64,000 nt of DNA, from assembly GCA_963783665.1 (NCBI GenBank), contig CAWANZ010000002.1, positions 680,984-744,983 of the forward strand. Reading direction: 5' to 3'. The stretch comes from Candidatus Aminicenantes bacterium (GTDB lineage: Bacteria > Acidobacteriota > Aminicenantia > Aminicenantales > UBA4085). A model generated the notes under the pieces. That model did not search any database and was not told the origin of the DNA. It saw only the letters and a program-made list of their open reading frames with translations. Both the position numbers and the translations under genes were made by a program. Shown here piece after piece: positions 2,561-64,000 of the stretch (within the stretch, counting starts at the first letter, position 1; the number at the start of each line of letters is the position of its first letter).

Positions 2561-3427
2561 TTAGAAAATCGTGTCCGGGACGAAAACAGTATCCCCTTCT
2601 TTCAGCTGGAAATCCGGGTCTTTATTGCTTTGGATGCGGGCGACGTTGATCTCGAACGTCTTTTCCTTGCCGTCGGCGTCCTTCCGGGTCACGACCACCC
2701 GGCGCTTGGCCGCCCGCTCGGTGAATCCGCCCGCCTGGGCGATCGCCTGGGTGACGGTTGGGATTCGGGATTGGAGGACGTTCAGAGCTCCGGGCATTTT
2801 CACCTGGCCGTAAATATAGACCTGGACGGTCCGGTCGATTTGAACGATGACCGAGTCGCCGGCCTCCAAGGGGAGGTTGAATTTCGGGTCGCCCTTCATC
2901 ATGAGGTCGTCGATCGGAATCTTCAGGTTGTTCGTCGTCCCATCCGGGAAGGTCCGGATGATAATGATCTCCCGGGCGGCTTCCTTGGTCAGGCCGCCGG
3001 CCGCGGTAATCGCTTCCAGGAGCGTCATCCGGCCGATGAGGGGGACGAATCCCGGCTTGGCCACCGCGCCCAGGAGGGAAACCTGCTTGCTCTGGCGTTC
3101 CTTGATGACCACGGAGACATGGGGATCGCGAATAAAAGGAGCGTAAAGCTCGGCCAGCTTCTTCTCAAGCTCCGGCGACGTCAGGCCCTCGACGTACACC
3201 TCGTTGATGATGGCCAGGTTGATCTTGCCCTGCTCGGTGACCCGGACCTCGGCGTTCATCTTGACGTCCTCCCTGACCTTGATCTCCAGGAGGTCCTTGG
3301 GGCCGATGCGGTACGGAATCACGTAGCCGTCGGACTGGGCGGCCGCGGGGTCCTGGGCGAAAAGCGGGGCCAGGAGGAAACCAAAAACGAAAGCCGCGAG
3401 GACCGCGGCCGGAATCCGTGTCTTCAT
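2561..3427 (-). CDS. wza: Polysaccharide export protein (Wza/Poly_export + two SLBB domains)
   Basis: Signal peptide, YRIGPKDLLEI motif, two SLBB repeats (TLLEAITAAGG, TVTQAIAQAGG). GGAG RBS before ATG 3427. Confidence 0.9.
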   Translation of the reverse strand: MKTRIPAAVLAAFVFGFLLAPLFAQDPAAAQSDGYVIPYRIGPKDLLEIKVREDVKMNAEVRVTEQGKINLAIINEVYVEGLTSPELEKKLAELYAPFIRDPHVSVVIKERQSKQVSLLGAVAKPGFVPLIGRMTLLEAITAAGGLTKEAAREIIIIRTFPDGTTNNLKIPIDDLMMKGDPKFNLPLEAGDSVIVQIDRTVQVYIYGQVKMPGALNVLQSRIPTVTQAIAQAGGFTERAAKRRVVVTRKDADGKEKTFEINVARIQSNKDPDFQLKEGDTVFVPDTIF

Positions 3428-3473
3428 GTGAAACTCCCTATTCGACGTGATCACCTGCGTTATCCGCGACAGG

Positions 3474-4733
3474 TTAAAAGCTCTGTTGGAGGACAAGGCC
3501 GACGAAATTTCGGGTGCGGTCGAAATTCGAAAGGCCCGATGTCCAGCGCTCCGCGTTCCAGGAAAGGCCGAGGCCCGCCGTCCGAAAGACGCGGAAAATC
3601 AACCCCACGGAATGAAGCCGGTGCCGGTCCTCCCGGTCGTCCGGAGATGCGGCGGCCTCTTCCCCGAAGGCGGCCGATCGAGCGGAATAGTCCGCCCGCC
3701 CCCTGGCAAAATCGTAATCGATTTTCAGAAAGGAGGTCAAATAGACCGACCCGCCCAGCCGGACCGAATCCTCGACATAATAGAAGATCTGGGCATACGT
3801 GGAAAAGACCAGGTCCCGGGCGAATTGCAGGCGGACGGCCAGCCGCCCGGTCCGCAGGTCGAGCCCGGTGTTTCCCACCAAGCCGCGGAACACCGGCTCC
3901 CCTGCCGTTTTCGGGTCGAAGGTTTTATATCCGAGGTTGAGGAGGCCGCGGATTCGGCCGAGAAGGGGAAACCGGAAGCCGGCCCGGATGCCGGTCGCCA
4001 TCGCGTCGCGCCAACCGGCTGCGTTGTCGACGAATTTGTATTCCTGGACCTCCCCGCGAAAAAACAGGAATCCGTCGGTGAAAAGCTGGTAGTAGGCTTC
4101 GGCCGCGAGTTCCCGCTCCTCCCGGTCGAGAAGCTGAGCCACCGGCGCTTCGTCGGGCGATATCAGGATCTCGTCATAAGAAATCTTCCGGACGGCCCCG
4201 GAGATCCCGATCGATGTTTTTCGGGCGGTCTCGAAGGCCAGGCCGGCGGCGAGGCTTCTCACCCGGTCCGTGGCCGGAATCTGGAATTCCGAAGAAATCC
4301 GGCGGCGGTGCCGATCGTCTCCGGCATCCGCGGACAGGACGAAGCGGCGCAGAAAGAGAGCCCGGAATCCGGCTCCATAGCCGTTGGTGAAGGACCGTTG
4401 GTACGATTCCTTTTGATAATAGGCGTATTCAGGATTCTCGCGGGCATAAAGGATCAGGGTGTTGCGGAGGGGCCAGTAGGCTCTGACTTCCGGAGAGAGC
4501 GTCGCGGTGAAATCCTTTTTCGGCTCCCCGGAGTCGCTTCCGAAATAGAGGTTGTCGTCGAAGCCCACATCCCGGATGGTGATCGTCGGATAGATCCGAA
4601 AGGGGCCCAGCTTCCAGCGTGTCCGGGTCAGGATTCTCTGGTATTCGTCCGAGAAATTTTGATAGCTCTGAGCCGAAAGAAACCCGGCGGCCAGGGTCAG
4701 TCCCAGGGCTAAGGTCATCGCGAAGCGGCGCAT
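3474..4733 (-). CDS. EPS-locus outer-membrane beta-barrel protein
   Basis: Signal peptide, alternating amphipathic beta strands, C-terminal Phe (LQQSF), directly upstream of wza. Confidence 0.75.
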   Translation of the reverse strand: MRRFAMTLALGLTLAAGFLSAQSYQNFSDEYQRILTRTRWKLGPFRIYPTITIRDVGFDDNLYFGSDSGEPKKDFTATLSPEVRAYWPLRNTLILYARENPEYAYYQKESYQRSFTNGYGAGFRALFLRRFVLSADAGDDRHRRRISSEFQIPATDRVRSLAAGLAFETARKTSIGISGAVRKISYDEILISPDEAPVAQLLDREERELAAEAYYQLFTDGFLFFRGEVQEYKFVDNAAGWRDAMATGIRAGFRFPLLGRIRGLLNLGYKTFDPKTAGEPVFRGLVGNTGLDLRTGRLAVRLQFARDLVFSTYAQIFYYVEDSVRLGGSVYLTSFLKIDYDFARGRADYSARSAAFGEEAAASPDDREDRHRLHSVGLIFRVFRTAGLGLSWNAERWTSGLSNFDRTRNFVGLVLQQSF

Positions 4734-4756
4734 TGCGGTGAAACGGATCCGCCGGG

Positions 4757-5950
4757 TCAATTCAAGAGCCGGTCCAGAAAGGCGGGTTTCCGGGAAAACG
4801 ACCGAAAGATTTCGGCGACGGCGGCCTTGCGGAAGAGCGACCGGATCACCCCGCTCTGCCAGTCGAAATTCCCCTCGCCTTGGATCAAGGGAATGAGGCC
4901 GTCGGTCTGGGCCAGCGTGAACAGGGCTTCGAACTGAGATTCGCTCATCCAGGAATAGAGCTTCCTCACATACAATCCGAGGGAAATTTCCCGACGGAGG
5001 GCGGCTTTCCAGCGGCGCTCGTAGGCCGCAAGCGAGGCGGCCCCGAGGGAATCGGCAGCCAGGGCTTCCCGGATGACATCGGCGGCGATCCGGGCTCCCC
5101 ACAAACCATAATAAACGCCCCCGCCGGTGGTCGTTTTGACCTGTCCGGCGGCCTCGCCTACGGATAAGGCCCGGTCGGCGACGGTTGTTTTGGCCATGCC
5201 TTGATAGATCGGTTTGAATTCGAGCGGTCGGGCGGCGCCTTCCAGCGACATCCCGGGGTGGTGCCGGCGAAGGAACGCCTCAAACGCCTCCCGCGGGTGC
5301 TCGTCGGTAATCAATCCGATCCGCATCCGGCCGTCTCCGGAAGGAACGGACCAGGCGAATCCGCCGGGCGCCGTCGGCGGTCCGGCATAAATCGTCGGGA
5401 TCACCGCGCCATCGCTTTCGATTTCGGCCTGGGCTCCGTGGACGATCCTTTTGGGGAGCGTCAGTTTCAGTTTTGCGTGCAGTCGCCGGTCCACACCCGT
5501 GGCCAAAACGGCCATCCGGGCCCGGCGGCGGACCGGGACATCGGCGACGACCGTCTCGAGGATGACGCCGTCGGGCAAGACCTCGATGTCGAGGACGGAC
5601 GTCCCCGTTTCGATTTCCGCCCCGGCCCGTTCGGCCAAGCCGGCTAAGGCTTGATCGAAGCGACGCCGATCGACCACCGCGGCAAACGGCGCCGGGTGGC
5701 GGTAAAGGATCGTCTTTCCCGTGGAGGAGACGATCCGGGCTTCCTGGAACTCCGAGGTGAGAATATCGGCCGGCAGGTCGAATTCGGAAAACAGCTCCCG
5801 GCCGACAAAGCCGGTGCAGACAACGTTCGATCCGATTTCCGGCTTTTTTTCGAAAACGGAGACGCGCGCCCCGGTTTCGGCCAGCAAGCGGGCGGTTTGC
5901 AGGCCGGCCGGCCCGCCGCCAATCACCGCCACGTCGATACAATCCGTCAT
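4757..5950 (-). CDS. Geranylgeranyl reductase-family FAD-dependent oxidoreductase
   Basis: DVAVIGGGPAG FAD motif, VCTG, DRRRFD, FAWSVP, VGEAAGQVKTTTGGGVYYG. Confidence 0.85.
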   Translation of the reverse strand: MTDCIDVAVIGGGPAGLQTARLLAETGARVSVFEKKPEIGSNVVCTGFVGRELFSEFDLPADILTSEFQEARIVSSTGKTILYRHPAPFAAVVDRRRFDQALAGLAERAGAEIETGTSVLDIEVLPDGVILETVVADVPVRRRARMAVLATGVDRRLHAKLKLTLPKRIVHGAQAEIESDGAVIPTIYAGPPTAPGGFAWSVPSGDGRMRIGLITDEHPREAFEAFLRRHHPGMSLEGAARPLEFKPIYQGMAKTTVADRALSVGEAAGQVKTTTGGGVYYGLWGARIAADVIREALAADSLGAASLAAYERRWKAALRREISLGLYVRKLYSWMSESQFEALFTLAQTDGLIPLIQGEGNFDWQSGVIRSLFRKAAVAEIFRSFSRKPAFLDRLLN

Positions 5951-6035
5951 TTCGTAATCTCGGAATGTCCTTGGAACTCGCGACATCAGATGAGGCTCAA
6001 ATGAAGGCGTATTATGACGATTTTTCCGATAGGAA

Positions 6036-6666
6036 TCAAATCTTCGATTGCCGGGATTCCCATTTTCCCCGGAACGTGATCCAGAAGGAGAGGAAAATCA
6101 GCCGGAGGTCAAACCAGAAGCTTCGCTTCCGGAGATAAAGAAGGTCATAGCGGAACTTCTTCCGCCGGGGCGTGTCGCCGGGAAGAAAAACCTGGGTCAG
6201 GCCGGTCAGCCCCGGACGGACGACATGCCGTTCCCGGATAGCCGGGGATATCCTGGATGTCGCGCCGATCCGGATCGCCGTGAACTTCCTGTTCGTTCGG
6301 CCTGAGGGCCCGCGGGCCGACGAAGCTCATGTCTCCTTTGAAGATGTTGACCAATTGGGGAAGCTCGTCCATCGCCGTCGCCCGGAGGATCCGGCCCACC
6401 CGGGTGACCCGGGGATCTCGTTCGACCGCCTGCTTCGGGCCGTCCTTCTCGGCGTCGGTCCGCATGGACCGGAACTTGAGGGCTTTAAAGATGCGGCCGT
6501 TCTTCCCCACCCGCTCCTGGCCGAAAAAGACGGGCCCTCCGTCTTCCAGCTTGATCAGGATCGGGATCGCGATCCAGAGAGGCGAGGACAGAAGCAGCCC
6601 GATGAAAGCCAGTCCGGCATCGAACGGCCGCTTGAGGAACAGCGCTTTCCAGAGCGGGGCGCTCAT
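6036..6666 (-). CDS. Priming (polyprenyl-phosphate) sugar transferase, one frameshift near 6235
   Basis: KRPFD, KFRSM, DPRVTRVGRILR, DELPQLVNIFKGDMSFVGPR. After a +1 indel it continues VRPGLTGLTQ...YDLLY...DLRLI to TGA at 6036. Confidence 0.9.
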
Positions 6667-7898
6667 GAGCGGACCTTCTCCGGACGGCTGTCGAGGGATT
6701 GCATCAATTTCTCGAAGGCGTCGATCACGCTCCGCCGGGAATACTTTTCTTCCGCCAAACGCCGGCCCCGGGCGGCCATTTCGGAGCAGAGGGACGGGGC
6801 TTCCTTGAGGCTTTGGATCGCGGCCGCGATCCGAACCGTGTCGTCGGGCGGAGCGCAGAGCCCGCATTCGGCGTCGCGGATGATCTGAAAAACTTCCGAG
6901 GCTTCCGTCGCCAGGCCCAGAATCGGCCGGCCGGCGGCCAGGAAGTTATAGAGCTTCGAAGGGACGGATAAAAACGACTTGTCCTTGTCCAGGGGGACCA
7001 ACAGCGCGTCGGCCGAGGCCAGAAGATGGGGCAGGTCGCCGTAAGGCTGGAACGGGAGAAAAACGACGTTTCGGAGCTTGAGGGCTTCGGCCCGGGCCCG
7101 GAGGTCGGGGAGCTTGAGCCCGTCTCCGACGATGACCACCCGGATTTTCGGATCGGCCGCCAGAAACCGGGCCGCCTCCAGGATCCGGACGAGCGTTTCG
7201 AAGCTGGAGATGCTGATCGTCCCCGAATACATGACCGTGAAGAGATCGTGCAGGCCGTATTTGCGCGAAACCGGGTTGTCTTTTGGGAGCGGACGGAGAA
7301 ATTCCGTGTCCACCCAATTTGGGATCACGGAAATCTTCGCCTCCGGGACGTTTTTCGACAGGAGGTTTCTCTTGAAACCGTCGCTGATGACCACGATCCG
7401 GTCGTGGCCGTCATACAGGAGCTTTTCAAAAGCCTTGGCGGCCTTGATGGCGAATGGATTGCGGAGGATGCCCGCTTCGATCGAGAGGTCCGGGTGGATG
7501 TCCTGGACGTTGAGGATGACGGACGCGCCGCGAAGGCGGCGGGCCAGGATCCCGGTCAAGCCGAGCTGGAGGGGCGGCAGCCGGAGAAAGACGATGTCAC
7601 CGCGCCGGACGGTCCGGAGGTTCCAGAAGGTGGCCAAGGTATAGATGGTCCAGGCGATCAGCCGGCCGATGGGATGGACGGTGAAATTGGTCGGATAGCG
7701 TTTGACGAGCACGCCGTTTCTGTTCTCCCGGACGAGCATGCGCCCCTCGTAGCCGCGGTTATGCGGCGGCCGGGGGATCGTCGTGATGATTTCGACCCGG
7801 TGACCGCGGGACGCCAATGAAGCGGCCAGCTCGTCCATCAGGATCGGGGCGCTGCCCATGTCCGGGAGGTAGTACATCGTGTGGATGAGAACTCTCAT
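6663..7898 (-). CDS. Glycosyltransferase family 4 (WcaI/WbuB-like)
   Basis: YYLPD, VQDIHPD, VIPNWVD, PSKLYNFLAAGRPI. ATGA overlaps with both neighbours. Confidence 0.9.
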   Translation of the reverse strand: MRVLIHTMYYLPDMGSAPILMDELAASLASRGHRVEIITTIPRPPHNRGYEGRMLVRENRNGVLVKRYPTNFTVHPIGRLIAWTIYTLATFWNLRTVRRGDIVFLRLPPLQLGLTGILARRLRGASVILNVQDIHPDLSIEAGILRNPFAIKAAKAFEKLLYDGHDRIVVISDGFKRNLLSKNVPEAKISVIPNWVDTEFLRPLPKDNPVSRKYGLHDLFTVMYSGTISISSFETLVRILEAARFLAADPKIRVVIVGDGLKLPDLRARAEALKLRNVVFLPFQPYGDLPHLLASADALLVPLDKDKSFLSVPSKLYNFLAAGRPILGLATEASEVFQIIRDAECGLCAPPDDTVRIAAAIQSLKEAPSLCSEMAARGRRLAEEKYSRRSVIDAFEKLMQSLDSRPEKVRS

Positions 7899-9124
7899 AA
7901 AATCACCTCGGAGCCGGAGTCGGGAACGGACGACCGGCGGAGCATGAAGGAAATGAAGGCCATAGCCGGGACGAGCAAAAGGAGGTCGACGCCGTAGAAG
8001 GCCGCGGTCGACTCGAAGAAGGTTCGGGACGTCAGGAAGACGACAATTAAGACGGATTCCGTGAGCAAGATCTGGTCTTCCCCTTCCAGCGACCGGGTGA
8101 CCTTGAAGATCCTCTTTTTAAGCATGACGATCCAGATCCCGGCAAGGGAGGCCAGAAAGAGGACCGCTCCGATGATTCCCTCTTGGATGGCCGCATGGAG
8201 GTAGGAGTTGTGCATGTGAAGGTTGCGGAGCATGATCCGGTCGGCGTTGAAGCCCCAGCCGAGAAACGGGGAGGCTTCGATTTTATCGATTCCGGCGCTC
8301 CAACCGACCTGGCGGCCTGAAAGGTCGAGCAATCGCTCGAAGTTGCTCTGGGCCCGGCCCTGAAACCCGGAGACGTAGATGATCCCCAGGGCGGCCAGGC
8401 CGACCAGGAAAAACTTGAAGTTGATCCCCTTGAGCAGGACGAAAAACATCATTACCAAGGCCAGGCCCAGGAGCGACGTCCGTGACTCGGTCTGGGCCAG
8501 CATGAAGAAGGCCGGCGGCAGGGGCAGGAGCCAGATCCAGCGCTTTTTGCCGTGCCCCGCGGCCAGACGAACGACGCTGACGATGATGACGATCAGGGCA
8601 TAGCGGCCGACGCCGTTCCGGGTCACCTCCCCCAAGCCGAATGGAATCGCATAGAGTTGCGTGTTGGCTTGGGCGCCCCGCCAGATCCTGATGGCCGAGG
8701 GGAGCAGGGAGAACGTCAGGGCGAAAAAGATCGCATAGTTAAGCTGGATGGTGATCTTGAGGCGGTGGAAGTTGTCCTCCCCTTCCGTGACCATCCAGAA
8801 GACCATGAGCGGGGCCAGGTACAAACCCGCCCAATAGGCCGATTCCCAGGGTTCCGCCGAAAGCAGGAAGGAGACGGACAGACCGATGAAGCCGTAAGCG
8901 AAGAGGAAGCCGAGCGGATTTTTCAGATAAGGAAATTTCGCCCGCTTGACGATGATCCACATCAAGGCCAGATACGTCGCCAGATGCGGTAAAAACGCCC
9001 GGGTCCCCTGAAAGAAGGTCTTGAAATCGGAGAGGAAGATCTCGGAATACGGCGGCTGGATGTACCGGGTATCGGTGAACATCCCGGCCCACACGAGCAG
9101 CCAGAGCAACAGCGTGAAATTCAT
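7895..9124 (-). CDS. O-antigen ligase / Wzy-type polymerase
   Basis: About 11 hydrophobic helices, SRT motif, LSGR...W...PFLGWG, HMHNSYL. Confidence 0.85.
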   Translation of the reverse strand: MNFTLLLWLLVWAGMFTDTRYIQPPYSEIFLSDFKTFFQGTRAFLPHLATYLALMWIIVKRAKFPYLKNPLGFLFAYGFIGLSVSFLLSAEPWESAYWAGLYLAPLMVFWMVTEGEDNFHRLKITIQLNYAIFFALTFSLLPSAIRIWRGAQANTQLYAIPFGLGEVTRNGVGRYALIVIIVSVVRLAAGHGKKRWIWLLPLPPAFFMLAQTESRTSLLGLALVMMFFVLLKGINFKFFLVGLAALGIIYVSGFQGRAQSNFERLLDLSGRQVGWSAGIDKIEASPFLGWGFNADRIMLRNLHMHNSYLHAAIQEGIIGAVLFLASLAGIWIVMLKKRIFKVTRSLEGEDQILLTESVLIVVFLTSRTFFESTAAFYGVDLLLLVPAMAFISFMLRRSSVPDSGSEVIL

Positions 9125-10575
9125 GTTTGCTTCAGCCCCAAACCGGCCGTTGAGGCCAGCTCCCGGAGGAGGTCGCGGCCTTTCCAGAGAACGATCGATC
9201 CATAAACTGCCACGCCCGCCGCGACCGAAACCAGGAGGTCGGAAAGCGGCGATAGCTGCCACGGCTCCCAGGCCAAGGCCCGGAGGCCCAGAACGACGGC
9301 GATGATCGCGGCGGAGCCGATCGTCGGCAGGCGGAGCCGGCTCAGAAAGGGACGCCAGCGGAGCGTAATGAGCTTGTTCGTCACGCCCTGAATGACGGGG
9401 CTTAAAGCCGCCGTCCACAGGGTGAAAGCGATCGTCACGCCCATCAGGCCGTATTTGACCCCGACGAAAAACGCGACCAGGTTGCCGACGAGGGCTATGA
9501 AATTGAGCTTGAAGCTCAGGTCGGACCGCCCTTTCGCATACTGCACGGCCGAGGCCGGGCTGAGGATAGATTGGATGGCCCCGACGATGCAGAAGACTTC
9601 AAGCACGGCCGCGGCCGGAAGCCATTTGGCTCCGTAGACGGACGCGATCAGGCTGTGGCTGACGGCGAACATTCCGGCCATAATCGGGAACGTGACCAGG
9701 GAGATGAATTTGATCACTCGGAGATAGCCGTCCCGGATCCGGGCGTTGTCGTTCTGGATCAGGGAGAACGCCGGGAAGATGACCCGGGTGACGGAATCGG
9801 AGATTTTCCAGGCCGGCGTCAGCATCAGGCTGTAGGCGAGGGAATAATAACCCAGAGCCTCCATCCCGAGAAAACGCCCGATGATGATGTTATCCACGTT
9901 CTGGGAAGTGAAGCTGACGATCTGCTCGCCCAGGACAAAAATTCCGAATTTGAGAAGGGGACGGACGGAGGCCAGATTGAACTGCCAGCCCGGCCGCATG
10001 TCGGCCGAAATCCACAGGAGGACGACGCGAAGCCCGGCGCCCAGGATGTAGCCGTAGACGATGCTCCAGATGCCGTACCCCATCAACGCCAGGACGATCG
10101 AGGACGCGCCGCTCGTCAGCGCCTCGGCAATCTCGATCTTGAACCGGGTTTTAAAATCGAGCTTCTTCTGAAGGAGCGCCGCGAACATCGACCCGAGAGC
10201 GCAGACAACGAAGGCGAGAGACATGACCTTCAGGATCGGCCCCAGCCGCTCCTCCTGGAAGAAGGCGGCCAAAGCCCCGGAGCCGAGATACATCATCCCG
10301 GCCAGGAGGATGCCTCCGCCGACGTTCAGAAAAAATATCGTGGAGAACTGTTCCCGGGTGACCGATTCCTCATGGACGATCGCCGCCCCCAAGCCCATGT
10401 CGGCCAGGAGGGTCAAAAGGCCCATCATGATCAGAATGATCCCGCGAAGGCCGAAATCCGAAGGCTCCAGGATATTAGCCAGGACGGCGAGAACAACGAA
10501 CGTCCAGGCTGTCACAAGCGACGCGGACCCGCCTTTCCACAGGATACCTTGCGCCGTTCGCTTCGTTAAAGACAT
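9121..10575 (-). CDS. wzx: Polysaccharide flippase (WzxC-like, MOP superfamily)
   Basis: LEPSDFG, DMGLGAAIV, DNIIIGRFLG...LGYY, YGAKW, 12-14 TM segments. Confidence 0.9.
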   Translation of the reverse strand: MSLTKRTAQGILWKGGSASLVTAWTFVVLAVLANILEPSDFGLRGIILIMMGLLTLLADMGLGAAIVHEESVTREQFSTIFFLNVGGGILLAGMMYLGSGALAAFFQEERLGPILKVMSLAFVVCALGSMFAALLQKKLDFKTRFKIEIAEALTSGASSIVLALMGYGIWSIVYGYILGAGLRVVLLWISADMRPGWQFNLASVRPLLKFGIFVLGEQIVSFTSQNVDNIIIGRFLGMEALGYYSLAYSLMLTPAWKISDSVTRVIFPAFSLIQNDNARIRDGYLRVIKFISLVTFPIMAGMFAVSHSLIASVYGAKWLPAAAVLEVFCIVGAIQSILSPASAVQYAKGRSDLSFKLNFIALVGNLVAFFVGVKYGLMGVTIAFTLWTAALSPVIQGVTNKLITLRWRPFLSRLRLPTIGSAAIIAVVLGLRALAWEPWQLSPLSDLLVSVAAGVAVYGSIVLWKGRDLLRELASTAGLGLKQT

Positions 10576-10580
10576 GAAGA

Positions 10581-10593
10581 CGGGCTACCGCCC
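10581..10593 (-). promoter_or_regulatory. ops-like element (GGGCGGTAGCCCG)
   Basis: Core GGCGGTAG at 10585-10592 on minus, 9 nt upstream of the first start codon of the EPS operon. It can form a GGGC-GGTA-GCCC hairpin. Confidence 0.45.
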
Positions 10594-36195: not shown

Positions 36196-36249
36196 ACTCT
36201 ACTCTTGAAGTATCCTGCCCTTCGGAACCTCGCTTAAAGGAGATGAAAC

Positions 36250-36804
36250 ATGGTTGAAATCCGCTTTCACGGCCGGGGCGGCCAAGGCACCGTCGTCGCC
36301 TCGAAAATCCTGGCCGACACCCTCGCCAAAGAGGGCAATTACGTCCAGGCCTACCCCGAATTCGGGGTGGAACGCCGCGGCTCGCCGGTCGTGGCCTTCA
36401 TCCGCATCGACGATAAGCAGATTTTCGACAAAAGCCGGATCTACGAGCCCGATCACGTCATCGTCGTCGATCCGACCTTGGTCGAGGCCATCGACGTCAC
36501 CGAGGGCCTTAAAGACGGCGGCCGGATCCTGATCAACAGCGACAAGCCGGCCGACCATTTCAAGTTCCCGGCCAAGTTCAAGGTTTCGACAATCAACGCC
36601 ACCGAGATCGCCGTCCGGAACAAGCTCGGCAGTCTGGCCGCGCCGATCGTCAACACGGCGATCGTCGGGGCGGTTGTCCGGGTCTTCAAATTCGCCAAGC
36701 TCGAGTCCCTGCTCGGGGCGATCGCCGAAGCGATCAACATCAAGCCCGAAGCCAACCAGAAAGCGGCGGCCGAGGCCTACGAACAGGCCGGGTCGATCGT
36801 CTGA
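36250..36804 (+). CDS. porC: Pyruvate/2-oxoacid:ferredoxin oxidoreductase gamma subunit
   Basis: EIRFHGRGGQG, FGVERRGSPV, IVNTAIVGA. Confidence 0.93.
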   Translation: MVEIRFHGRGGQGTVVASKILADTLAKEGNYVQAYPEFGVERRGSPVVAFIRIDDKQIFDKSRIYEPDHVIVVDPTLVEAIDVTEGLKDGGRILINSDKPADHFKFPAKFKVSTINATEIAVRNKLGSLAAPIVNTAIVGAVVRVFKFAKLESLLGAIAEAINIKPEANQKAAAEAYEQAGSIV

Positions 36805-36815
36805 GGGAAACCGCC

Positions 36816-37115
36816 ATGCCAAAGAAAAGAGACGCAAAAAAAATCGTCTACGAATCCGAAAAAGAGATGCCCCAGATGCCCATGTCCCAGGGCTCGATGC
36901 TCTGGAACAAGACGGGCAAATGGCGGAACATCCGGCCGGAGATCGACCTGGAGAAATGCATCCAGTGCGGGATCTGCTGGAAGTTCTGCCCGGACATGTC
37001 GATCGTGATCGAGAACGAGTTCCCGGCCGTCGACTACGACTTCTGCAAGGGCTGCGGGATCTGCGCCGAGGAATGCCCGACGAAATGCATCGTCATGGTG
37101 GAGGAACGGAAATGA
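36816..37115 (+). CDS. porD: 2-oxoacid:ferredoxin oxidoreductase delta subunit
   Basis: TGKWR..RP and two CxxCxxCxxxCP motifs. Confidence 0.93.
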   Translation: MPKKRDAKKIVYESEKEMPQMPMSQGSMLWNKTGKWRNIRPEIDLEKCIQCGICWKFCPDMSIVIENEFPAVDYDFCKGCGICAEECPTKCIVMVEERK

Positions 37116-38266
37116 AGAAAGTCATTATGGGCAACCACGCCCTGTCCTACGGGGCGATGCTCTCCCGGTCCCAGGTCATCTCGGCCTACCCGATCACTCC
37201 CCAGACCCAGGTCGTGGAGCTTCTCTCGGAGATGTGCGCCGACGGGACGCTCCAGGCGAAGTTCATCAAGGTCGAGTCCGAGCACTCGGCCATGGCCTCC
37301 TGCATCGGCGCCTCGATCGCCGGGGCCCGGACGTTCACCGCGACCTCGGCCCAGGGGCTGGCCCTGATGCACGAGATGCTCCATTGGGCCTCCGGCGGGC
37401 GGCTGCCGATCGTCATGGGCAACATCAACCGGGCCATGGCCCCCGGCTGGTCGATCTGGACGGACCAGAACGATAGCCTGAGCCAGCGCGACACCGGCTG
37501 GATGCAGTTCTACTGCTCGAGCAACCAGGAAGTCCTCGACACGACGATCCAGGCCTTCAAAATCGCCGAAACCGTCGGCATCCCGGCCATGGTCGTCCTC
37601 GACGCGTTCGCCCTCTCCCATACCTACGAGGTCGTCGATATCCCCGACCAGGACAAGGTCGACGCCTACCTTCCCCCTTACAAACCCTACGCCCGGCTAA
37701 CCCCGGACGCCCCTTGCGCCTTCGACGGCCTGACCGGCCCGGAGCATTATTTCGAGCTTCGCTATAAGCTCCAGAAGGACATGGAGAAAGTCCCGGCCCT
37801 GTTCGATGAGACAAGCCGGGAGTTCGAGAAAATTTTCGGTCGCCGCCTCGAAGCGGTCGAGCCTTACATGTGCGACGACGCCGAAATCATCCTCGTCACC
37901 TCGGGAACGGCGGGCTACACGGCCCGCGTCGCCGTCGACGAAATGAGAAAGGAAGGGATCAAGGTCGGAAACCTCCGCATGCGGATGTTCCGGCCGTTCC
38001 CCTTCGACGCCGTCCGGCGGATCCTCTCCAAGACTCCCAAAATCGCCGTCATGGACCGGAACATCTCCTACGGCTACCACGGCATCTTCTGCCAGGAAGT
38101 GAAATCGGCCCTGAACGGGTCCGGATCCAAGGCCCCCGTCTTCGGGTTCATCGCCGGCCTGGGCGGCCGGGACATCACCGTCGGGTCCTTCCGCGAGGTC
38201 GTCGACATCACCCGGCGGCAGGACAAGCCGGCCGAGGAGATCAACTGGATCGGAGTCAAAAAATGA
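37112..38266 (+). CDS. porA: 2-oxoacid:ferredoxin oxidoreductase alpha subunit
   Basis: AYPITPQT, VESEHSA, TATSAQGL, GLGGRD. Confidence 0.94.
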   Translation: MKKVIMGNHALSYGAMLSRSQVISAYPITPQTQVVELLSEMCADGTLQAKFIKVESEHSAMASCIGASIAGARTFTATSAQGLALMHEMLHWASGGRLPIVMGNINRAMAPGWSIWTDQNDSLSQRDTGWMQFYCSSNQEVLDTTIQAFKIAETVGIPAMVVLDAFALSHTYEVVDIPDQDKVDAYLPPYKPYARLTPDAPCAFDGLTGPEHYFELRYKLQKDMEKVPALFDETSREFEKIFGRRLEAVEPYMCDDAEIILVTSGTAGYTARVAVDEMRKEGIKVGNLRMRMFRPFPFDAVRRILSKTPKIAVMDRNISYGYHGIFCQEVKSALNGSGSKAPVFGFIAGLGGRDITVGSFREVVDITRRQDKPAEEINWIGVKK

Positions 38267-39162
38267 GCAAAGAAAAGAAAATGCGGCTGTCCCTTCCGGA
38301 AGAGGAGCTCGTCGGCCCGGGCAACCTGGCCTGCCAGGGCTGCGGGGCTAACCTGGCTCTCCGCTACGTCCTCAAGGCCTTCGGGAAACGGACCGTCATC
38401 TGCATCCCGGCCTGTTGCTGGGCGGTCATCGACGGGGCCTTCCCCCACTCCTGCATGGGCATCCCGGTCTATCACTGCGCCTTCGAAACGGCCGCCTCCA
38501 CAGCGACCGGGGTCAAGGCCGGCCTGGAAATGGTCGGCGACGCCGAAACCCAGGTCATCGCCTGGGCCGGCGACGGCGGAACCTTCGACATCGGGATCCA
38601 GGCCCTCAGCGGCGCCGCCGAGCGCAACGACGACATCCTCTATGTCTGCTACGACAACGAGGCGTACATGAACACGGGCATCCAGCGCTCGTCGGCCACC
38701 CCCCTGGGAGCCTGGACGACGACGACGCCGGTCAAGTTCCCCAAGGACCAGCCCAAGAAGGACATCGACGCGATCATGGCCGCCCACCGGATCCCCTACC
38801 AGGCCACCGCCTCGATCGCCTATCCGGAGGACTTGTACAAAAAGGCGCTCAAGGCCAAGAACACCCGAGGGACGAAATTCATCCACATCTACGCCCCCTG
38901 CCCGACGGGTTGGAAAAGCCGGCCCGAGGACGCGGTGAAACTGGCCCGGCTGGCCGTCCAAACCTGCTATTTCCCCCTCTACGAGGTCGAATACGGCGAA
39001 AAATACACCCTCAATATCAAGGTCCAGAACAAGAAGCCGATCGACGAGTACATCAAGCTCCAGGGCCGCTACCGGCACTTGAAACCCGAGGGCATCGCGG
39101 CCATCCAGGCCGGGATCGACCAGAATTGGGAACGACTTCTGAAGAAGGTGAACGCCGGCTGA
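38263..39162 (+). CDS. porB: 2-oxoacid:ferredoxin oxidoreductase beta subunit
   Basis: ACQGCG, GDGGTFDIG...DNEAYMNTGIQRS TPP motif, PCPTGW. Confidence 0.94.
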   Translation: MSKEKKMRLSLPEEELVGPGNLACQGCGANLALRYVLKAFGKRTVICIPACCWAVIDGAFPHSCMGIPVYHCAFETAASTATGVKAGLEMVGDAETQVIAWAGDGGTFDIGIQALSGAAERNDDILYVCYDNEAYMNTGIQRSSATPLGAWTTTTPVKFPKDQPKKDIDAIMAAHRIPYQATASIAYPEDLYKKALKAKNTRGTKFIHIYAPCPTGWKSRPEDAVKLARLAVQTCYFPLYEVEYGEKYTLNIKVQNKKPIDEYIKLQGRYRHLKPEGIAAIQAGIDQNWERLLKKVNAG

Positions 39163-39186
39163 GCCGGAGTCGCCAACGTCTAACCA

Positions 39187-39215
39187 GGGGGGCCTTCCCG
39201 GCCCCCCTTTTTTTT
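39187..39215 (+). terminator. Rho-independent terminator of por operon
   Basis: GGGGGGCC-TTCCC-GGCCCCCC stem-loop followed by T8. Confidence 0.85.
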
Positions 39216-39232
39216 CATATGATAGGGACGTC

Positions 39233-40357
39233 ATGCGTCGAGGCAAGTTCCTGTCCCGGCTCCATTCCCGGTTCGAAGGCGGAAGCCTCTTCGAGCGGAT
39301 GTTCGTCGACGACGACCTGCGAACCCACGTCCAGACGATCCTCGTCTGCGGGATCCTTTCGGTCGTCAGCGCGGCCATGTGCCTGATCAACCTGGCCGGC
39401 GGGGCCAAGATCATGGCCCTGAGCACCGGGGCGTTCGCCCTGTTGTCCCTGCTCTCTCTCTTCATCACGGTCGTTTCCGGGTCCCATGCCTTCGCCTCGG
39501 CGGTCATGGCCGCGGCCGTCCTGGTTCTCTTCACCTCGTTCCTGTATGACGGCGGAGTCAACGGCTTCAGCCCGATCTGGATCTGCCTCCTCCCGCCGAC
39601 AGGCATGTTTTTCTTCGGAATCCGGAAAGGGACGGCGATCTCAACGGCCATGCTGGCCGTCGTCGTCGGTCTGCTCTGGACGCCGCTTTTCCGAGCCCTC
39701 CCATATGCGTATTCCCGGACATTCCAGGTCCGCTTTCCGATTGTCTACATGAGCTGTTTTCTCATCGCCTACGCCCTGGAATACTACCGCCATCACACCC
39801 AGAAAATGCTCGAGGAATCCAACCGCCGGCTCGAAGCGATGAGCCTGGTGGACCAGCTGACGGGCATCGAGAATCGGCGGGGCTTCGACCGGAAGCTGAC
39901 CGAGGCCTGGAACTACGCTCTTCGCTCGGGTGGCGTCCTCTCCCTTCTCATGGTCGATATCGACCATTTCAAGAAGTACAACGACCACTACGGCCACCTG
40001 GCCGGCGACACCGTCCTCATCCGGACGGCCAAGGCGATCAGCGAGGTCATTTCCCGGAAAACCGATACGGTGGCCCGCTGGGGCGGCGAGGAATTCGCCG
40101 TTCTTCTCCCCTACGCCGACCCCCGGGGGGCGGGCAACATCGCCCTGGCCGTCCGGGAAGCCGTCGAAAAGCTGAACGTCCCCCACAAGAAAACCCTCCT
40201 GCCGCGGAAGGTCCTGACGGTCAGCATCGGGGCGGCGACGATCCGCCCGGCCAAGGGCAAATCCGCTCTGGAGCTGGTCGCCCTGGCCGACCAGGTCCTC
40301 TACGCCGCCAAGAACAACGGCCGCGACCGCATCGAGACGGATTTCGTCTCGGCTTGA
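39233..40357 (+). CDS. Membrane-bound diguanylate cyclase
   Basis: About 6 TM helices, DQLTG, DIDHFKKYND.YGH..GD, RxxD I-site (RKTD), GGEEF. Confidence 0.92.
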   Translation: MRRGKFLSRLHSRFEGGSLFERMFVDDDLRTHVQTILVCGILSVVSAAMCLINLAGGAKIMALSTGAFALLSLLSLFITVVSGSHAFASAVMAAAVLVLFTSFLYDGGVNGFSPIWICLLPPTGMFFFGIRKGTAISTAMLAVVVGLLWTPLFRALPYAYSRTFQVRFPIVYMSCFLIAYALEYYRHHTQKMLEESNRRLEAMSLVDQLTGIENRRGFDRKLTEAWNYALRSGGVLSLLMVDIDHFKKYNDHYGHLAGDTVLIRTAKAISEVISRKTDTVARWGGEEFAVLLPYADPRGAGNIALAVREAVEKLNVPHKKTLLPRKVLTVSIGAATIRPAKGKSALELVALADQVLYAAKNNGRDRIETDFVSA

Positions 40358-59560: not shown

Positions 59561-59648
59561 TTTGTTTGTCCTTTCAGTGGATGAAGTCGGTTCCCGAGCA
59601 TATCCTTGCCGATATTATAACGCGGAAGAGAGCGGGGGAAAATGGTCG

Positions 59649-59723
59649 TGCGCCTGGCCCGGCTCGAACGGGCGACCTAGGGTTTAGGAAACCCTTGCTC
59701 TATCCATACTGAGCTACAGGCGC
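59649..59723 (-). tRNA. tRNA-Arg (anticodon CCT)
   Basis: GCGCCTG acceptor stem, GCTC/GAGC D arm, AGGGT-TTCCTAA-ACCCT anticodon arm, GCCCG-TTCGAGC-CGGGC T arm, discriminator A. CCA does not follow directly. Confidence 0.93.
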
Positions 59724-59773
59724 ACACGCGCCGAAGGCCATCATCTTAGCCCAAGACCGGAGGAAATTCCAGA

Positions 59774-61407
59774 TTAACCCAGGAATCCGTGGATGAATCG
59801 CTTGAGATAGGCCAGGACGGTCCGGCTGTTGGAGCTGTCCTCGACCTGCTGGGCCGAGAGCTCCTTGATCTTGAGGAGGAATTCCTTGTTCTGGGCGTTC
59901 CGGGCGCTGACGATCTCGGCGATCGCCTCGGCCGGCTCGGGATTGCGCTGGAGCAGGGACCGGAAATCTTCGGGCTGGATTTCGAGAAGCTCAGAATCCT
60001 CGGCCACGACCCCGGTCGCCGTCCGGGGCATGCCGGTAAAAAGGGACATCTCCCCGAAGAGGCCGCCCGGGCCGATTTCGAATTCCTTGGCGAACCGCTT
60101 GCCGTTTTCCTCGAAAACGATCTCGCCCTTGATCCGGCCCCGGCCGACGACGTAACAGCTCGTTCCCTTGTCTCCCTGGCGGAAGAGCACCTCGCCTTTG
60201 GTGTAAACCGACCGGCGAACGCGGCCGGCCATCGCCCGCAAGTCCGCTTCCGGAAACAGAAGCGCGCCGGTCTTCGGGCCGTCCTGATAGCGAAGGAAGG
60301 ACGAGCCCAGGAGGATATCGGCCGTCCGCCCTTGCTCGGCGTCCTTTTTCGTTCCGGACGGACAATTCCTGCCCCGCCGTAATTCCGGTTCCGGCCGAAT
60401 TCTCCCGCCGCCTGAATCGCGTCCTTCATCTCTCCCAGCCGGTCCGTCCAGGAGACGGCCACTTCGAATCCGCGGCGGCGGAATTTGTACCAGACCAGGC
60501 GCCCGGCCTCGGTGATGATCGTGAACTTGAGCGGATAGTCCTCGACCCAGAATTTCAGGGTGTAGGAAATCCCCGTCTCGTCATAGCTCGTCAGGTAGGC
60601 CTTGGGCTTAGGTTCGGAAACGATGTGGGGAACTTCGCGGGCGGATTCCAGGAGCAAATCAAGCACCTCGGCGGCCGGGGCGACCGGGCTGACCTTCAGA
60701 TAGAGATACAAAGCCGTCCGGTGATCGGGCATGGAGTAATTGACGATCCGCTCGCCGGCCACGACGTTGTTGGGAAGGACGACGATGTTGGACGCCCGGT
60801 CCAAAAGCCGCGTCTCCCTCCAGTTCGTGTCCATCACCACACCCTCGTGGGCGCCGAGGCTGATCCAGTCGCCTTTTTTAAACGACCGGGTGAAGTGGAG
60901 CGACATCCCGGCCAGGATGTTACCGAGCACGCCCTGGAGGGCCAGGCCGATGACGGCCGTCAGGATGGCCGATCCCGCCAGAAGGCTGGAGATATCCATG
61001 TCGAGCATGTTCTTCAGAATCAGGAAAAAGACGACAAGGTAAAGAATCCCGAGAATCAGCCCGCGCAGGACGTTGGGCAGAGGGTAAGGTTTCTGTCGAT
61101 CGTTATACCAGGCCAACATCGCCCCGTCGATCAGGCGAATCACGAGGACGATGACGAAGAAAAACTCGGCCGCTTTCAGGTACGAAGCCATCGCCGGCGA
61201 GACGCGGAACACCGCCTGGGCCGAAAAAAGCGTTCCGAGGGCGATCAGGGGAACGATCAAACGGGAGAGAAAGATCAGCCGGCCCTTTTTCTTTGTTCCG
61301 GGAAGCCGGTTGAACGCCGAACGGATCAAGGCCGCGAAAAAGACGATGACCGCGGCAACGCCGAAGGCGACTCCCAAATCCTGATAGAGGTCGGTCATGG
61401 CGGTCAT
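59774..61407 (-). CDS. MscS-family channel with C-terminal cyclic-nucleotide-binding domain (frameshift near 60350)
   Basis: TM helices, IGLALQGVLGNILAG, FKKGDWI, NWRETR, PNN. Second frame has LFRQGD...FGEMSLFTGMPRTAT. Confidence 0.88.
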
Positions 61408-62234
61408 CTCCCCGAATGAAAGATCATTCCTTCCCGGGCGCAGACGGCGCCGGGGAAGGCTTTCCGGGCGGCGGACTCGATCCGGCGGATCTCCTCATCG
61501 GAGTAGTCCGGATTCAGATGGGATAAGACCAGGCGTCCGGCTCCGGCCGCCCGAGCCAGGTCCACCCCGGCTGCCCAGGTGCTGTGGCCCCAACCTTTTT
61601 TCCCGGCCTCGTATTCGGCCGGAGTGAATGTCGCATCGTAAATCAGGACGTCGGCTCCGAGGGCAAAGGCCGCCAGCCGGGCATCGATTCCTTTAGCGGA
61701 ATGTTCCGTGTCTGTGGCAAATACGGCGGACCATCCCCCCTCCTCCAAACGATACGCGACACAACCTTGGGGATGGTTGAGCGGGCAGGCCGTGATCCGA
61801 ACACCGCCGATATCAACGGGCCGCGGCCCGATCCGGCGATACGTCTTCCGGGACGGGGTTTCGGCGAACTCGACCGGGAAATACGGACCGGTCATGAACT
61901 CGGAAAGCCGTCGGCGGAGCACCGCGGGCGCTTCGCCCGAATAGAACGCAAGCTCCGTCTCGCGGCGGAAAAGGGCCAGGAAAAACGGGAGACCGATCAG
62001 ATGATCGAAATGGAAATGCGTCAGGAGAACGTGGAGCGAGGAAGCCGCTTTCCGGCCGGCGGGGAGGGCTTCCTCCAAACGATGAAGTCCCGTTCCGGCG
62101 TCCAGAATGATGACGTCACCCGAATCGGTCCGGACCAAGGCGCACGGCGTATGGCCGCCGAAGATCGTTCCCCGGCGGCGCGCGACCGGGCGCGTCCCCC
62201 GCACTCCGAAAAGTTCGATGCGCATCTGGCCCAT
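61404..62234 (-). CDS. Metallo-beta-lactamase-fold hydrolase (cyclic-nucleotide phosphodiesterase-like)
   Basis: GVRG...GGHTPC, DAGTG, THFHFDH, LNHP, TDTEH, GWGHS, LSH. Confidence 0.85.
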   Translation of the reverse strand: MGQMRIELFGVRGTRPVARRRGTIFGGHTPCALVRTDSGDVIILDAGTGLHRLEEALPAGRKAASSLHVLLTHFHFDHLIGLPFFLALFRRETELAFYSGEAPAVLRRRLSEFMTGPYFPVEFAETPSRKTYRRIGPRPVDIGGVRITACPLNHPQGCVAYRLEEGGWSAVFATDTEHSAKGIDARLAAFALGADVLIYDATFTPAEYEAGKKGWGHSTWAAGVDLARAAGAGRLVLSHLNPDYSDEEIRRIESAARKAFPGAVCAREGMIFHSGR

Positions 62235-62241
62235 TCCTTCT

Positions 62242-64000
62242 CTATTTTGATTTCAAGTCGAAGACGAAATCCCAATCGTCCGGCGGCGGCGCGGCGGCCA
62301 GCGTCCGGCATCGTTCCCGATAGAGGGCCGCGACCGGGTCGTCCCCAAGCTCGACAAAGACTTTCTCCGCCGCGGAAAAATCGCGCGACCGAAAAATCGA
62401 CAAACCCCGGTGGAAGGAATCAACCCGCCGCAAGATCTCGTCCGCGACGCTTCCCTTGTCTCCGATCAGCTCGTAAATGCGTACGGGCTCTTTTTTGCCG
62501 ACGACCCGGATCACGTCGACTTCCCTGGCGACCAGCGCCTCTCCGGTTTTTTTCATGGTCGCTTCGCCGGCCAGGAGGTGGACGCCGTATTGCTTCCCGG
62601 CGCTTTCGAGCCGAGAAGCCAGGTTGATTGTATCGCCCATGGCCGTGTAATCGAACCGCCGGGACGAGCCCATGTTCCCCACGATCGCCGGACCGGTGTT
62701 GAGGCCGATCCGCATCTTGATCCGCCGGCCGTACTTCCTCTCGAGCTCGGGGGCAAGAGCGGCCACCCGGGCCTGACAATCCAAGGCCGTTCGGGCGGCC
62801 CGGAGAGCATGGTCGGGAACATCGATCGGCGCATTCCAAAAAGCGATGATCGCGTCGCCCTCATACTTGTCCAGCGTTCCCCCGGCATCAAGGATCAAAT
62901 CGGTCATCACGGTCAGGTATTCGTTGAGAAGGGCGACAAGCTTGGCCGGACCAAGGGCTTCCGAGATCGAAGTGAATCCGGCGACGTCTGAGAAGAAGGA
63001 CGTCACCTCCCGCTGCTCGCCGCCGAGCTTGAGCCGCCCGGGATCGGCGATGATCCGGTCGATGACGGCCGGGCTGAGATAGTGATGAAAGACGCCCTTG
63101 AGAAACCGTTTCTCCCGGCCTTCGACCATATAATTGAGGACGGCCGCGCCGACAATGGTCAGCAGGACCGCGGCCAGGGGGGCGACGAAATCCAGCCAGA
63201 TTCTCCCGGCAAATGCGGCCGTCGAGGCGGCGGCCGGGAAAAAGAGGAATCCCGCGAAAGCCGCGACTTGGGCCGCCGGCTTCCGAACGATGGAGACGGT
63301 CCAACCGGCGGCGAGAGCGAGAATCGAAATGAAGAGCCACGTGAGAAATCTGCCGGGGAATCCGAAGGATCGGTCATTGAGAATCGTATCCAGGGCTGCG
63401 GCCTGGATCTCTACCCCGGGAACCTTCCCGGAAAGCGGGCTGGCCTTGATGTCGAAAAGACCGATCGCGGTCAGGCCGATCAGGACCGTCTTCCCGGCGA
63501 ATTTTTCCGCGGGCACTTCGGGCGCTTCGCCCGCCTGGACCCGGGCAAACGAATTGATCACGGCCGCCGCGGTATAGGATTCATAAGCTGATCCGGTCTT
63601 TTCGTTCGGCCGGAAGAAACGGATGACTATCATCCGGTCGGACGCGGCCGCAATCGGCGGAAAATCCGCGTTCGGCCGGACGGCCATCGTCAAAGCGAAC
63701 GGGACCGAAGGGACAAAAAAAGAACTTTCGGAAGGCTCGTCGTCCCTGGTTCCCTGGAACGGGAAAAGGACGGGTGTGCGGCGGTAAATCGTGTCCGCAT
63801 CGGGGTTGACGCGAACATTGGCTGTTCCCCGGGCGGCGTTCAGAATCCCCGGAATCGGAAGAGTCGCAGACCGAAAAATCTCGCCCCAAACCTCGGAGCC
63901 GCCGTCTGGCGAGGCGCCCCGCAATGTGTTCGGAAGCCCGGCCTCGGCCTTCTCCCGGAAGGACTTCATCGCTCCGGGATCGAGTCTCGCTTCAGGGGCG
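62242..64000 (-). CDS. CHASE2-domain class III adenylate cyclase (5' end beyond window)
   Basis: CHASE2 tail (GKTVLIG, D...SP, PGVEIQA), 3 TM, FFSDVAGFT, DKYEGD, GLNTG..IVGNMGS, DYTAMGDTINLASRLE. Confidence 0.92.
   Translation of the reverse strand, partial: APEARLDPGAMKSFREKAEAGLPNTLRGASPDGGSEVWGEIFRSATLPIPGILNAARGTANVRVNPDADTIYRRTPVLFPFQGTRDDEPSESSFFVPSVPFALTMAVRPNADFPPIAAASDRMIVIRFFRPNEKTGSAYESYTAAAVINSFARVQAGEAPEVPAEKFAGKTVLIGLTAIGLFDIKASPLSGKVPGVEIQAAALDTILNDRSFGFPGRFLTWLFISILALAAGWTVSIVRKPAAQVAAFAGFLFFPAAASTAAFAGRIWLDFVAPLAAVLLTIVGAAVLNYMVEGREKRFLKGVFHHYLSPAVIDRIIADPGRLKLGGEQREVTSFFSDVAGFTSISEALGPAKLVALLNEYLTVMTDLILDAGGTLDKYEGDAIIAFWNAPIDVPDHALRAARTALDCQARVAALAPELERKYGRRIKMRIGLNTGPAIVGNMGSSRRFDYTAMGDTINLASRLESAGKQYGVHLLAGEATMKKTGEALVAREVDVIRVVGKKEPVRIYELIGDKGSVADEILRRVDSFHRGLSIFRSRDFSAAEKVFVELGDDPVAALYRERCRTLAAAPPPDDWDFVFDLKSK

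Follow-up and report, generated by a model that had tools for sequence, protein, structure and literature searches.

A 64,000-nt stretch of DNA from a Candidatus Aminicenantes bacterium (C2:680984-744983 of a 4.12-Mb, 10-contig assembly that is 77.5% complete; hereafter the window) was found to end in a compact set of minus-strand genes for a CHASE2-domain class III nucleotidyl cyclase, a metallo-β-lactamase (MBL)-fold hydrolase and an MscS-like channel with a cyclic-nucleotide-binding domain (CNBD). Together with two genes just beyond the window end and a tRNA-Arg gene, we read these as a five-gene cyclic AMP (cAMP) signalling cassette, with the MBL protein as phosphodiesterase, a bacterial cyclic-nucleotide-gated (bCNG) type of channel as receiver, and a frame break in the channel gene as an error of the assembly. 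As a whole this reading seems to us reasonably likely, and we infer all biochemical activities of the cassette proteins from comparative sequence analysis. An earlier prediction made from the letters of the window (the original prediction) had proposed a self-contained circuit of the three genes, and at the level of comparative genomics its interpretation largely holds.

Gene order and conservation of the cassette

The open reading frame (ORF) list gave three co-oriented minus-strand ORFs, one of 585 codons between 62242 and the window end, where its 5′ end is open, one at 61404-62234 (276 aa) and one at 59746-61407 (553 aa), and a fourth in another frame at 59774-60241 (155 aa). The first, at 62242-64000, is the 3′ part of a cyclase of IIIb type, as judged from Pfam, from alignment to CyaB and from the residues of its orthologues. 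Its stop codon TAG (62242-62244) is followed by a Shine-Dalgarno-like 7-nt spacer (AGAAGGA, 62235-62241) and then by the first ATG of the MBL gene at 62234. The TGA of the MBL gene (61404-61406) overlaps the first ATG of the channel gene (61405-61407), which gives an ATGA at 61404-61407, so both the 7 nt and the overlap of the original prediction are seen in the sequence. A second in-frame ATG stands three codons into both the MBL and the channel genes and is favoured by the database gene call (P0001, 273 aa) and by homologue alignments; if the second ATGs are used, the spacers are 16 nt between cyclase and MBL and 5 nt between MBL and channel. With either choice of start the three genes are tightly packed and suited to coupled expression. 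The scan for terminators and promoters gave nothing above shuffled sequences and no site between the cassette genes.

The DNA beyond 64000 was checked for further partners, as had been proposed, and the start of the cyclase and two more genes were found. The full cyclase gene encodes 722 aa (L002:3226-5394) and starts 410 nt past the window end. Directly upstream of it (L002:5438-6747) are the genes of an SH3-domain protein and of an M48 (BepA/LoiP-like) lipoprotein peptidase, which overlap each other by 4 nt, and the M48 gene ends 43 nt before the cyclase start. The N-terminus of the M48 protein, as read from the sequence, is a signal-peptide-like stretch ending in FAGC. At the other end, 50 nt past the channel stop and in the same orientation, the tRNA scan found tRNA-Arg(CCT) at 59648-59723 (minus strand), where the conserved block ends. 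The order of the cassette is SH3 protein, M48 lipoprotein peptidase, cyclase, MBL, channel and tRNA-Arg.

With the MBL protein as probe and a threshold of E ≤ 1e-40, an orthologue was found in 50 of 151 genomes sampled from the class. All 49 non-self loci (38 from the same order, 11 from other families of the class) were fetched and scanned with custom-built profiles. CHASE2-cyclase, MBL and MscS-cNMP (cyclic nucleotide monophosphate) genes followed each other in co-orientation in 29 of the 38 same-order loci (in one of these the contig ends inside the channel gene), and another 2/38 were cut by contig ends and compatible with the trio. The original prediction had made itself depend on the trio being conserved in relatives, and these 29 same-order genomes keep both order and orientation. 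Named records, fetched separately, yielded 13 loci of Aminicenantes type, every one trio-compatible (9 complete, 4 cut by contig ends); these come largely from the same species genomes as the 49-locus set and, not being independent, were not added to it. SH3 and M48 genes stood upstream of the cyclase in nearly all loci reaching that far, with RecD2 before them, and a scan of 51 related loci detected tRNA-Arg(CCT) in 28. Because the RecD2 and tRNA-Arg flanks are constant across the order, the cassette was probably inherited vertically in Aminicenantes, where it is probably also co-transcribed.

Part of the same survey weighs against the cassette reading. In 3/38 same-order loci (L100, L111, L123) cyclase and MBL genes were followed directly by tRNA-Arg with no channel, and in 4/38 (L091, L092, L101, L114) a non-CHASE2 cyclase and a small cNMP-binding protein were encoded near the MBL gene. 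None of the 11 other-family loci (33-38% identity) had any partner within 6 kb. The cassette is also patchy, with an MBL orthologue in 36 of the 102 good-quality genomes of the class.

The cyclase and the MBL-fold enzyme

Pfam analysis of the full cyclase gave CHASE2 (PF05226) with 158.8 bits at residues 16-368 and Guanylate_cyc (PF00211) with 78.7 bits against a cut-off of 21.9. Hydrophobic stretches flank CHASE2 on both sides, as seen by eye in the sequence and without a topology predictor. The best solved relatives of the cyclase domain were Cya2 (2w01), a phytochrome-cyclase fusion and Pseudomonas aeruginosa CyaB (3r5g, E 3.4e-30). The metal Asp pair and the transition-state Asn/Arg aligned to both 2w01 and 3r5g, and DKYEGD and DYT of the window cyclase aligned to DKFVGD and DYT of CyaB. 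Cya2 has Glu and Gly at both substrate-defining places; we take it to be a guanylyl cyclase, and its PDB label reads adenylate cyclase. Thr in place of Asp at the substrate-defining place marks class IIIb cyclases. Both metal Asp residues, Lys, Thr, Asn and Arg, all of which the original prediction had picked out, were kept in 44 of 44 cyclase orthologue ORFs, which were pooled from two overlapping locus sets and represent fewer than 44 distinct genomes. Because the Lys/Thr catalytic residues are conserved, the cyclase is predicted to make cAMP from ATP, which we consider probable. CyaB shares the Lys and Thr of these sites, but its membrane sensor, a MASE2 domain, is different from the CHASE2 found here.

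The MBL protein (61404-62234, minus strand; 276 aa, or 273 from the second ATG) is a putative cNMP phosphodiesterase of the Lactamase_B_2 family (PF12706, 72.8 bits). It carries the motif THFHFDH, and T72, H73, H75, D77 and H78 were invariant among 31 homologues, as were the further metal ligands H154, D175, H217 and H239. In the accessible text of the Rv1339 paper (PMC9293780), [T/S]HxHxDH within PF12706 defines the "atypical class-II PDEs" (phosphodiesterases), whose members include Mycobacterium tuberculosis Rv1339 and Corynebacterium glutamicum CpdA; Rv1339 was modelled there on the structure of Bacillus subtilis YhfI, and the class is described as close to RNase Z. The window protein fits this signature through its THFHFDH. 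Its AlphaFold (AF2) model had a pLDDT of 91.8, and the top Foldseek match of the model was YhfI (6KNS, E 2.3e-18, TM 0.71-0.81), followed by ZipD/RNase Z and then by BA1088 and PhnP-family enzymes. It thus shares with the atypical class-II PDEs the Lactamase_B_2 domain, the [T/S]HxHxDH motif and the YhfI-like fold, but it stands in a separate clade whose members frequently occur next to, or fused with, modules of the cyclase, GAF and PilZ kinds. The placement apart from the Rv1339 type follows from the NCBIfam model of the cyclic nucleotide-degrading phosphodiesterase (NF041851), on which the protein scored only 52.4 bits against a cut-off of 400, in one full-length stretch with E 4.6e-14.

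Same-clade MBL proteins (30-44% identity) were found fused to Guanylate_cyc plus REC, Guanylate_cyc, GAF plus HD-GYP, GAF plus sigma54, and GAF plus REC; P0241 is a REC and Guanylate_cyc fusion with 41% identity, and P0250 is a Guanylate_cyc fusion. From named records, 80 loci of the clade were kept, which were the 13 Aminicenantes-type loci and 67 others, and among these 80 the clade was mainly in Acidobacteriota, Myxococcota and cyanobacteria. In the 67 other loci the MBL gene was convergent with a cyclase gene in L023-25, L028, L029, L037, L041 and L043, and it overlapped a co-oriented cyclase gene in L044. It lay beside GAF-SpoIIE genes in L016, L019, L020, L024, L025 and L029 (GAF only, at a contig end, in L023; a GAF fragment only in L028) and beside MscS-cNMP genes in L021, L029 and L035, and it was fused to PilZ in L031, L053 and L073. 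In Myxococcota the MBL gene was followed by GAF-sigma54 activators in L050, L058, L061 and L075 (GAF only, at a contig end, in L059), and in L039 an MBL-GAF fusion was followed by a sigma-54 fragment. The settings with GAF-SpoIIE phosphatase and cyclase belong to Bryobacter-like Acidobacteriota, and in L017 a gene of the clade lies beside a K+ channel gene with a TrkA domain. As judged from sequence, the clade is a signalling-associated domain family of phosphodiesterase type. On the strength of motif, fold, fusions and gene neighbourhood, the MBL protein is likely to be the cAMP eraser of the cassette.

The alternative is that the cassette signals but its MBL protein acts on another phosphodiester, for example 2′,3′-cyclic nucleotides, RNA 3′ ends in the manner of RNase Z/BN, cyclic di-GMP (c-di-GMP) or a phosphonate-type substrate, and that cAMP is removed by another enzyme or by dilution. 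Several results that count against an eraser speak for this. The best NCBIfam scores were those of RNase Z models (87 and 85 bits), above the 52 bits of the cNMP-phosphodiesterase model, and ZipD and RNase Z came a close second among the fold matches. However, YhfI and not RNase Z tops these matches, and the RNase Z scores are one third of the cut-off and split in two stretches (TIGR02651, 87.3 bits against 292.95). Since both NCBIfam scores are far below cut-off, the protein is an orthologue of neither RNase Z nor NF041851. A profile search of the 77.5% complete assembly found no RNase Z above cut-off anywhere in the genome, so by this test a tRNA-end role of the MBL protein stays conceivable, and a tRNA gene lies just downstream of the cassette; but an orthologue in 50/151 class genomes is a patchy presence, unlike that of a housekeeping tRNA enzyme. 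PilZ or HD-GYP in some same-clade fusions points to c-di-GMP rather than cAMP, and in the four cyanobacterial loci scanned the orthologue lies between surE (a nucleotidase gene) and ribF with no signalling neighbour. Against this, the clade is fused directly to class III cyclase domains and adjoins cyclase genes in varied gene orders. We regard the alternative as rather unlikely and keep to the cAMP eraser.

The channel and its frame break

The channel core is encoded at 60390-61407 (minus strand) in a first frame and comprises transmembrane helices, the pore helix and the beta and alpha-beta domains. Pfam placed MS_channel_2nd (PF00924, 54.8 bits) and MS_channel_3rd (PF21082, 35.8 bits) within residues 1-320 of the long ORF; the core aligned to the structures of MscK, MscS, YnaI and MscM and was 85% identical to the homologue P0121. 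The end of the linker, the CNBD and a C-terminal helix are encoded at 59774-60352 (minus strand) in a second frame, as determined from Pfam and from alignment to the homologue P0122. The 155-aa ORF gave 78.8 bits with cNMP_binding (PF00027). The CNBD is canonical; it matched that of Epac with E 2.8e-18 and also the domains of the CRP family, PKA, PKG, SthK and MloK1. Its phosphate-binding cassette GEMSLFTGMPRTA is intact, and the GE...PRTA motif noted in the original prediction is present as FGEMSLFTGMPRTA. Among 40 channel ORFs, pooled from the same two overlapping locus sets as the cyclases, G[E/D]M..PRTA was seen in 39, and in the remaining one the pattern matched elsewhere in the protein. 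The Thr in PRTA is also found in cAMP-selective domains, so it says little about cGMP binding.

In its MscS pore helix and cytoplasmic cage, linker and C-terminal cNMP-binding domain the protein is like the bCNG channels. It differs from them in occurring in Aminicenantes (Acidobacteriota), in being encoded after a presumed cyclase and phosphodiesterase, and in having its gene broken in the linker in this assembly. The accessible text of a 2026 review (PMC13591265) describes bCNG channels as mostly cyanobacterial and states that neither their role nor their partners are known and that they have no structure. Two statements in it belong on the contrary side of the account, namely that E. coli expressing bCNG channels was not protected from hypo-osmotic shock and that the role of cyclic nucleotides in bCNG gating is unresolved.

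Three-frame translation and tblastn placed the first reading frame of the channel up to about 60390 and the second from about 60352 onward. Residues 1-341 of P0122 aligned by tblastn to 61398-60373 in the one frame, and residues 349-540 aligned to 60352-59777 in the other with 88.5% identity over 192 aa. The break zone (60353-60389, minus strand), as delimited by frame translation, homologue alignment and the contig of a relative, falls in the linker that joins the MscS cage to the CNBD and is poorly conserved. In 119 of the 120 homologues listed, the MscS and cNMP domains are in a single protein of about 500-560 aa; channel and CNBD form one polypeptide in related loci and occupy two frames in this assembly.

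The surroundings of the break carry most of the argument. From about 42.3 to 60.4 kb (18 kb) unrelated genes are all frame-broken while their domains are still recognisable, and both flanks are clean. In this block Peptidase_M14 is left as a 77-aa piece, QueH is in two pieces, of HypF only domain fragments are seen, within a single long open frame, and a GH3 beta-glucosidase at 55.9-58.7 kb is split into six or more pieces with consecutive Pfam ranges. By Pfam continuity the 17 genes in 0-42 kb are whole, and so are the MBL, cyclase, M48, SH3 and RecD2 genes. On another contig rpoB and rpoC are likewise intact, with open frames of 1449 and 1407 aa. A contiguous block of this kind points to a poorly polished stretch of the assembly, and because the channel break lies at the edge of such a block of otherwise undamaged genes, it is very probably an assembly artefact; the real gene would then encode a single protein of about 545 aa. 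The frame changes in the block also interrupt a large secreted protein at 54.4-55.6 kb. Outside the block, about 3.9-5.7 kb past the window end, a PAS-PAS-HisKA_2 histidine kinase gene (L002:8840-10675) shifts frame after about residue 446 and so lacks the ATPase domain, probably through another assembly indel. Overlapping same-strand ORFs in 0-42 kb were considered as broken genes and rejected, being separate intact genes. An estimate of the genome-wide frameshift rate from proteins of relatives was dropped, for the queries came from the same syntenic locus and only re-found it.

Reads gave a more mixed picture. In a search of public runs the best run held 0.14 of the sampled words, and the four runs that were mapped gave either relatives about 90% identical or near-identical 151-nt pieces that did not cover 60236-60506. 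One contig of a relative bridges the break (319 nt, about 90% identical); relative to the window a single base is absent from it at each of 60389 and 60353, which restores the frame, and both sites lie in a CCGGAAC context on the coding strand. The middle-frame peptide SAGTG...ELSVR, followed by TKK, resembles the P0122 linker SAGPGG...AVFRTKK. Scoring of the three linker frames against 11 homologue linkers (16 homologues were tried, 5 of them without anchors) gave totals of 222, 194 and 215 with no clear winner. We prefer a model of two extra bases to one of a single missing base. It tells against the artefact, however, that this sole bridging contig has a depth of 2.8 and that the runs otherwise hold relatives or miss the site. 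A separate low-depth contig has a 1-base gap at 60276, where the window frame agrees with the homologues, so indels of this kind in single contigs are weak evidence.

If the break were real, the channel gene would be a recent pseudogene or a split gene, the latter giving a channel that lacks the CNBD and perhaps, from a TTG at 60241, an independent CNBD protein of 155 aa, and the circuit would here be without its normal receiver. The break does stand in the assembly, the mapped runs gave no reads of the source sample at the site, the 155-aa ORF holds a whole cNMP_binding domain, and the three related genomes without a channel have lost it entirely. Moreover, the clean rpoB and rpoC show that errors are not spread evenly through the assembly. 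But the break borders the 18-kb block where QueH, HypF, the M14 peptidase and GH3 are broken alike, a pattern that is not one of selective decay; the 192 downstream codons are free of stops and damage and 88.5% identical to P0122; and under the two-base model both extra bases share their context. A real break therefore seems quite unlikely. The original prediction had flagged a frameshift near 60350, and two frames are indeed present; the shift is most likely an error of the local block of broken genes, and at the site the read mapping that had been proposed for it reached only relatives. A frame break in a long-contig metagenome assembly has to be weighed against the local density of broken genes.

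Proposed circuit and its relatives

In the proposed circuit an extracytoplasmic cue would act on CHASE2, and the two exported accessory proteins, SH3 and M48, may shape this cue. The Lys/Thr class III catalytic domain would turn ATP into cAMP, as its conserved residues suggest, and cAMP would bind the CNBD under the MscS cage and alter the gating of a heptameric channel in a direction that we do not assign. Altered gating would produce a fast, non-transcriptional flux of ions or solutes, and the MBL enzyme, to judge from its motif, fold, fusions and neighbourhood, would hydrolyse cAMP and reset the circuit. Of the write-erase-respond circuit in the original prediction, the core stood, with the trio conserved, the residues kept and the MBL clade tied to cNMP modules. 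Channel opening was an overstatement, since the direction of the cAMP effect is not fixed by the evidence. "Self-contained" did not stand either, because SH3 and M48 are conserved upstream and the genome encodes two more cyclases and three more cNMP-binding proteins.

These further proteins share the cell with the cassette and are another point against it; insulation of the circuit from the other cAMP proteins is only inferred. Both further class III cyclases have FHA domains. The three further cNMP-binding proteins are 2xCNB-NTE/patatin (a phospholipase), CNB-Lyase_1 (of fumarase/aspartase type) and HATPase_c_2-CNB-SpoIIE, and the other cNMP-binding genes lie at C2:187500-191000, C4:120500-124000 and C2:298800-302000, all of them enzyme-linked. 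A PF00027 search of the assembly (77.5% complete) found no CRP-type regulator, and all four cNMP-binding proteins are linked to a channel or an enzyme, so the claim that no CRP-type factor is involved holds for the assembled part. Elsewhere in the window a MASE6-GGDEF diguanylate cyclase gene at 39152-40354 adjoins a pyruvate:ferredoxin oxidoreductase gene set at 36247-39159. At 48-10584 lies a cluster for polysaccharide synthesis and export, which encodes a Wzz-type tyrosine kinase, Poly_export/SLBB, a beta-barrel porin, GT4, a Wzy_C ligase and a Polysacc_synt flippase.

The cyclase and the cNMP-binding membrane protein could also work as a pair in abortive infection against phage, after the manner of Pycsar, and the MBL protein would then be a built-in off-switch like Apyc1. 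PADLOC models of PycC matched the cyclase domain (best 100.5 bits) and its Pycsar effector models matched the CNBD (40.9 bits), some MBL homologues gave faint matches to Anti-Pycsar_Apyc1 (12.6 bits against a cut-off of 50), and the distribution is patchy. But these are matches to shared domains only, and PADLOC found nothing on the MBL protein or on the MscS part. An extracytoplasmic CHASE2 sensor and a Lys/Thr pair of the adenylyl-cyclase kind mark the cyclase, the would-be effector is a complete channel of MscS type, and RecD2/tRNA-Arg flanks that stay constant across the order indicate vertical inheritance and not a defence island. We therefore regard a defence role as highly improbable and retain the signalling cassette.

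Every part of the cassette is of a known family, and clustering of a CHASE2 cyclase with a phosphodiesterase is already in print. The Campylobacterota cAMP cluster, as described in the accessible text of PMC9239204, consists of a CHASE2 adenylate cyclase, a cAMP phosphodiesterase, an outer-membrane protein with a FecR domain and a TPR protein. Like the cassette, it brings together a CHASE2 cyclase, an enzyme that degrades cAMP and accessory proteins that are exported, and it has been interpreted as a single pathway; as far as that text goes, the accessory proteins are FecR and TPR there and SH3 and M48 here, and a receiver channel is encoded in the cluster here. In Sinorhizobium meliloti, according to the accessible text of PMC13001267, the CHASE2 cyclases CyaD1, CyaD2 and CyaK answer a plant protein cue via the envelope protein NsrA, and in the published text consulted this protein cue is the only CHASE2 ligand named. 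CHASE2-domain cyclases thus turn an external cue into cAMP in the CyaD1/CyaD2/CyaK-Clr pathway as well, but its output, as described there, is transcription through the CRP-family Clr, whereas here it would be an ion channel, with no CRP-like protein found in the assembly. A literature search, with subscription papers outside its scope, found no paper on a cyclase-phosphodiesterase-bCNG operon or on a bCNG channel as an encoded receiver. New are the distinct MBL clade and a conserved order of five genes in which the receiver, a bCNG channel, is encoded alongside the rest.

A stronger version of the circuit is possible but doubtful. In it the five genes would form an envelope-to-channel reflex in which M48 and SH3 provide CHASE2 with a peptide or cell-wall-derived ligand and cAMP directly gates the MscS-type channel, and the MBL clade, partnered with cyclase, GAF and PilZ modules in several phyla, would count as a widespread cyclic-nucleotide phosphodiesterase family in its own right. 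If this were true, it would give the orphan CHASE2 sensor domain its first defined input and bCNG channels their first physiological circuit. In any case, a sensor, an eraser, a channel and two exported accessory proteins that are encoded together are concrete partners for co-expression and assay, and the MBL clade is flagged as a source of candidate cyclic-nucleotide phosphodiesterases.

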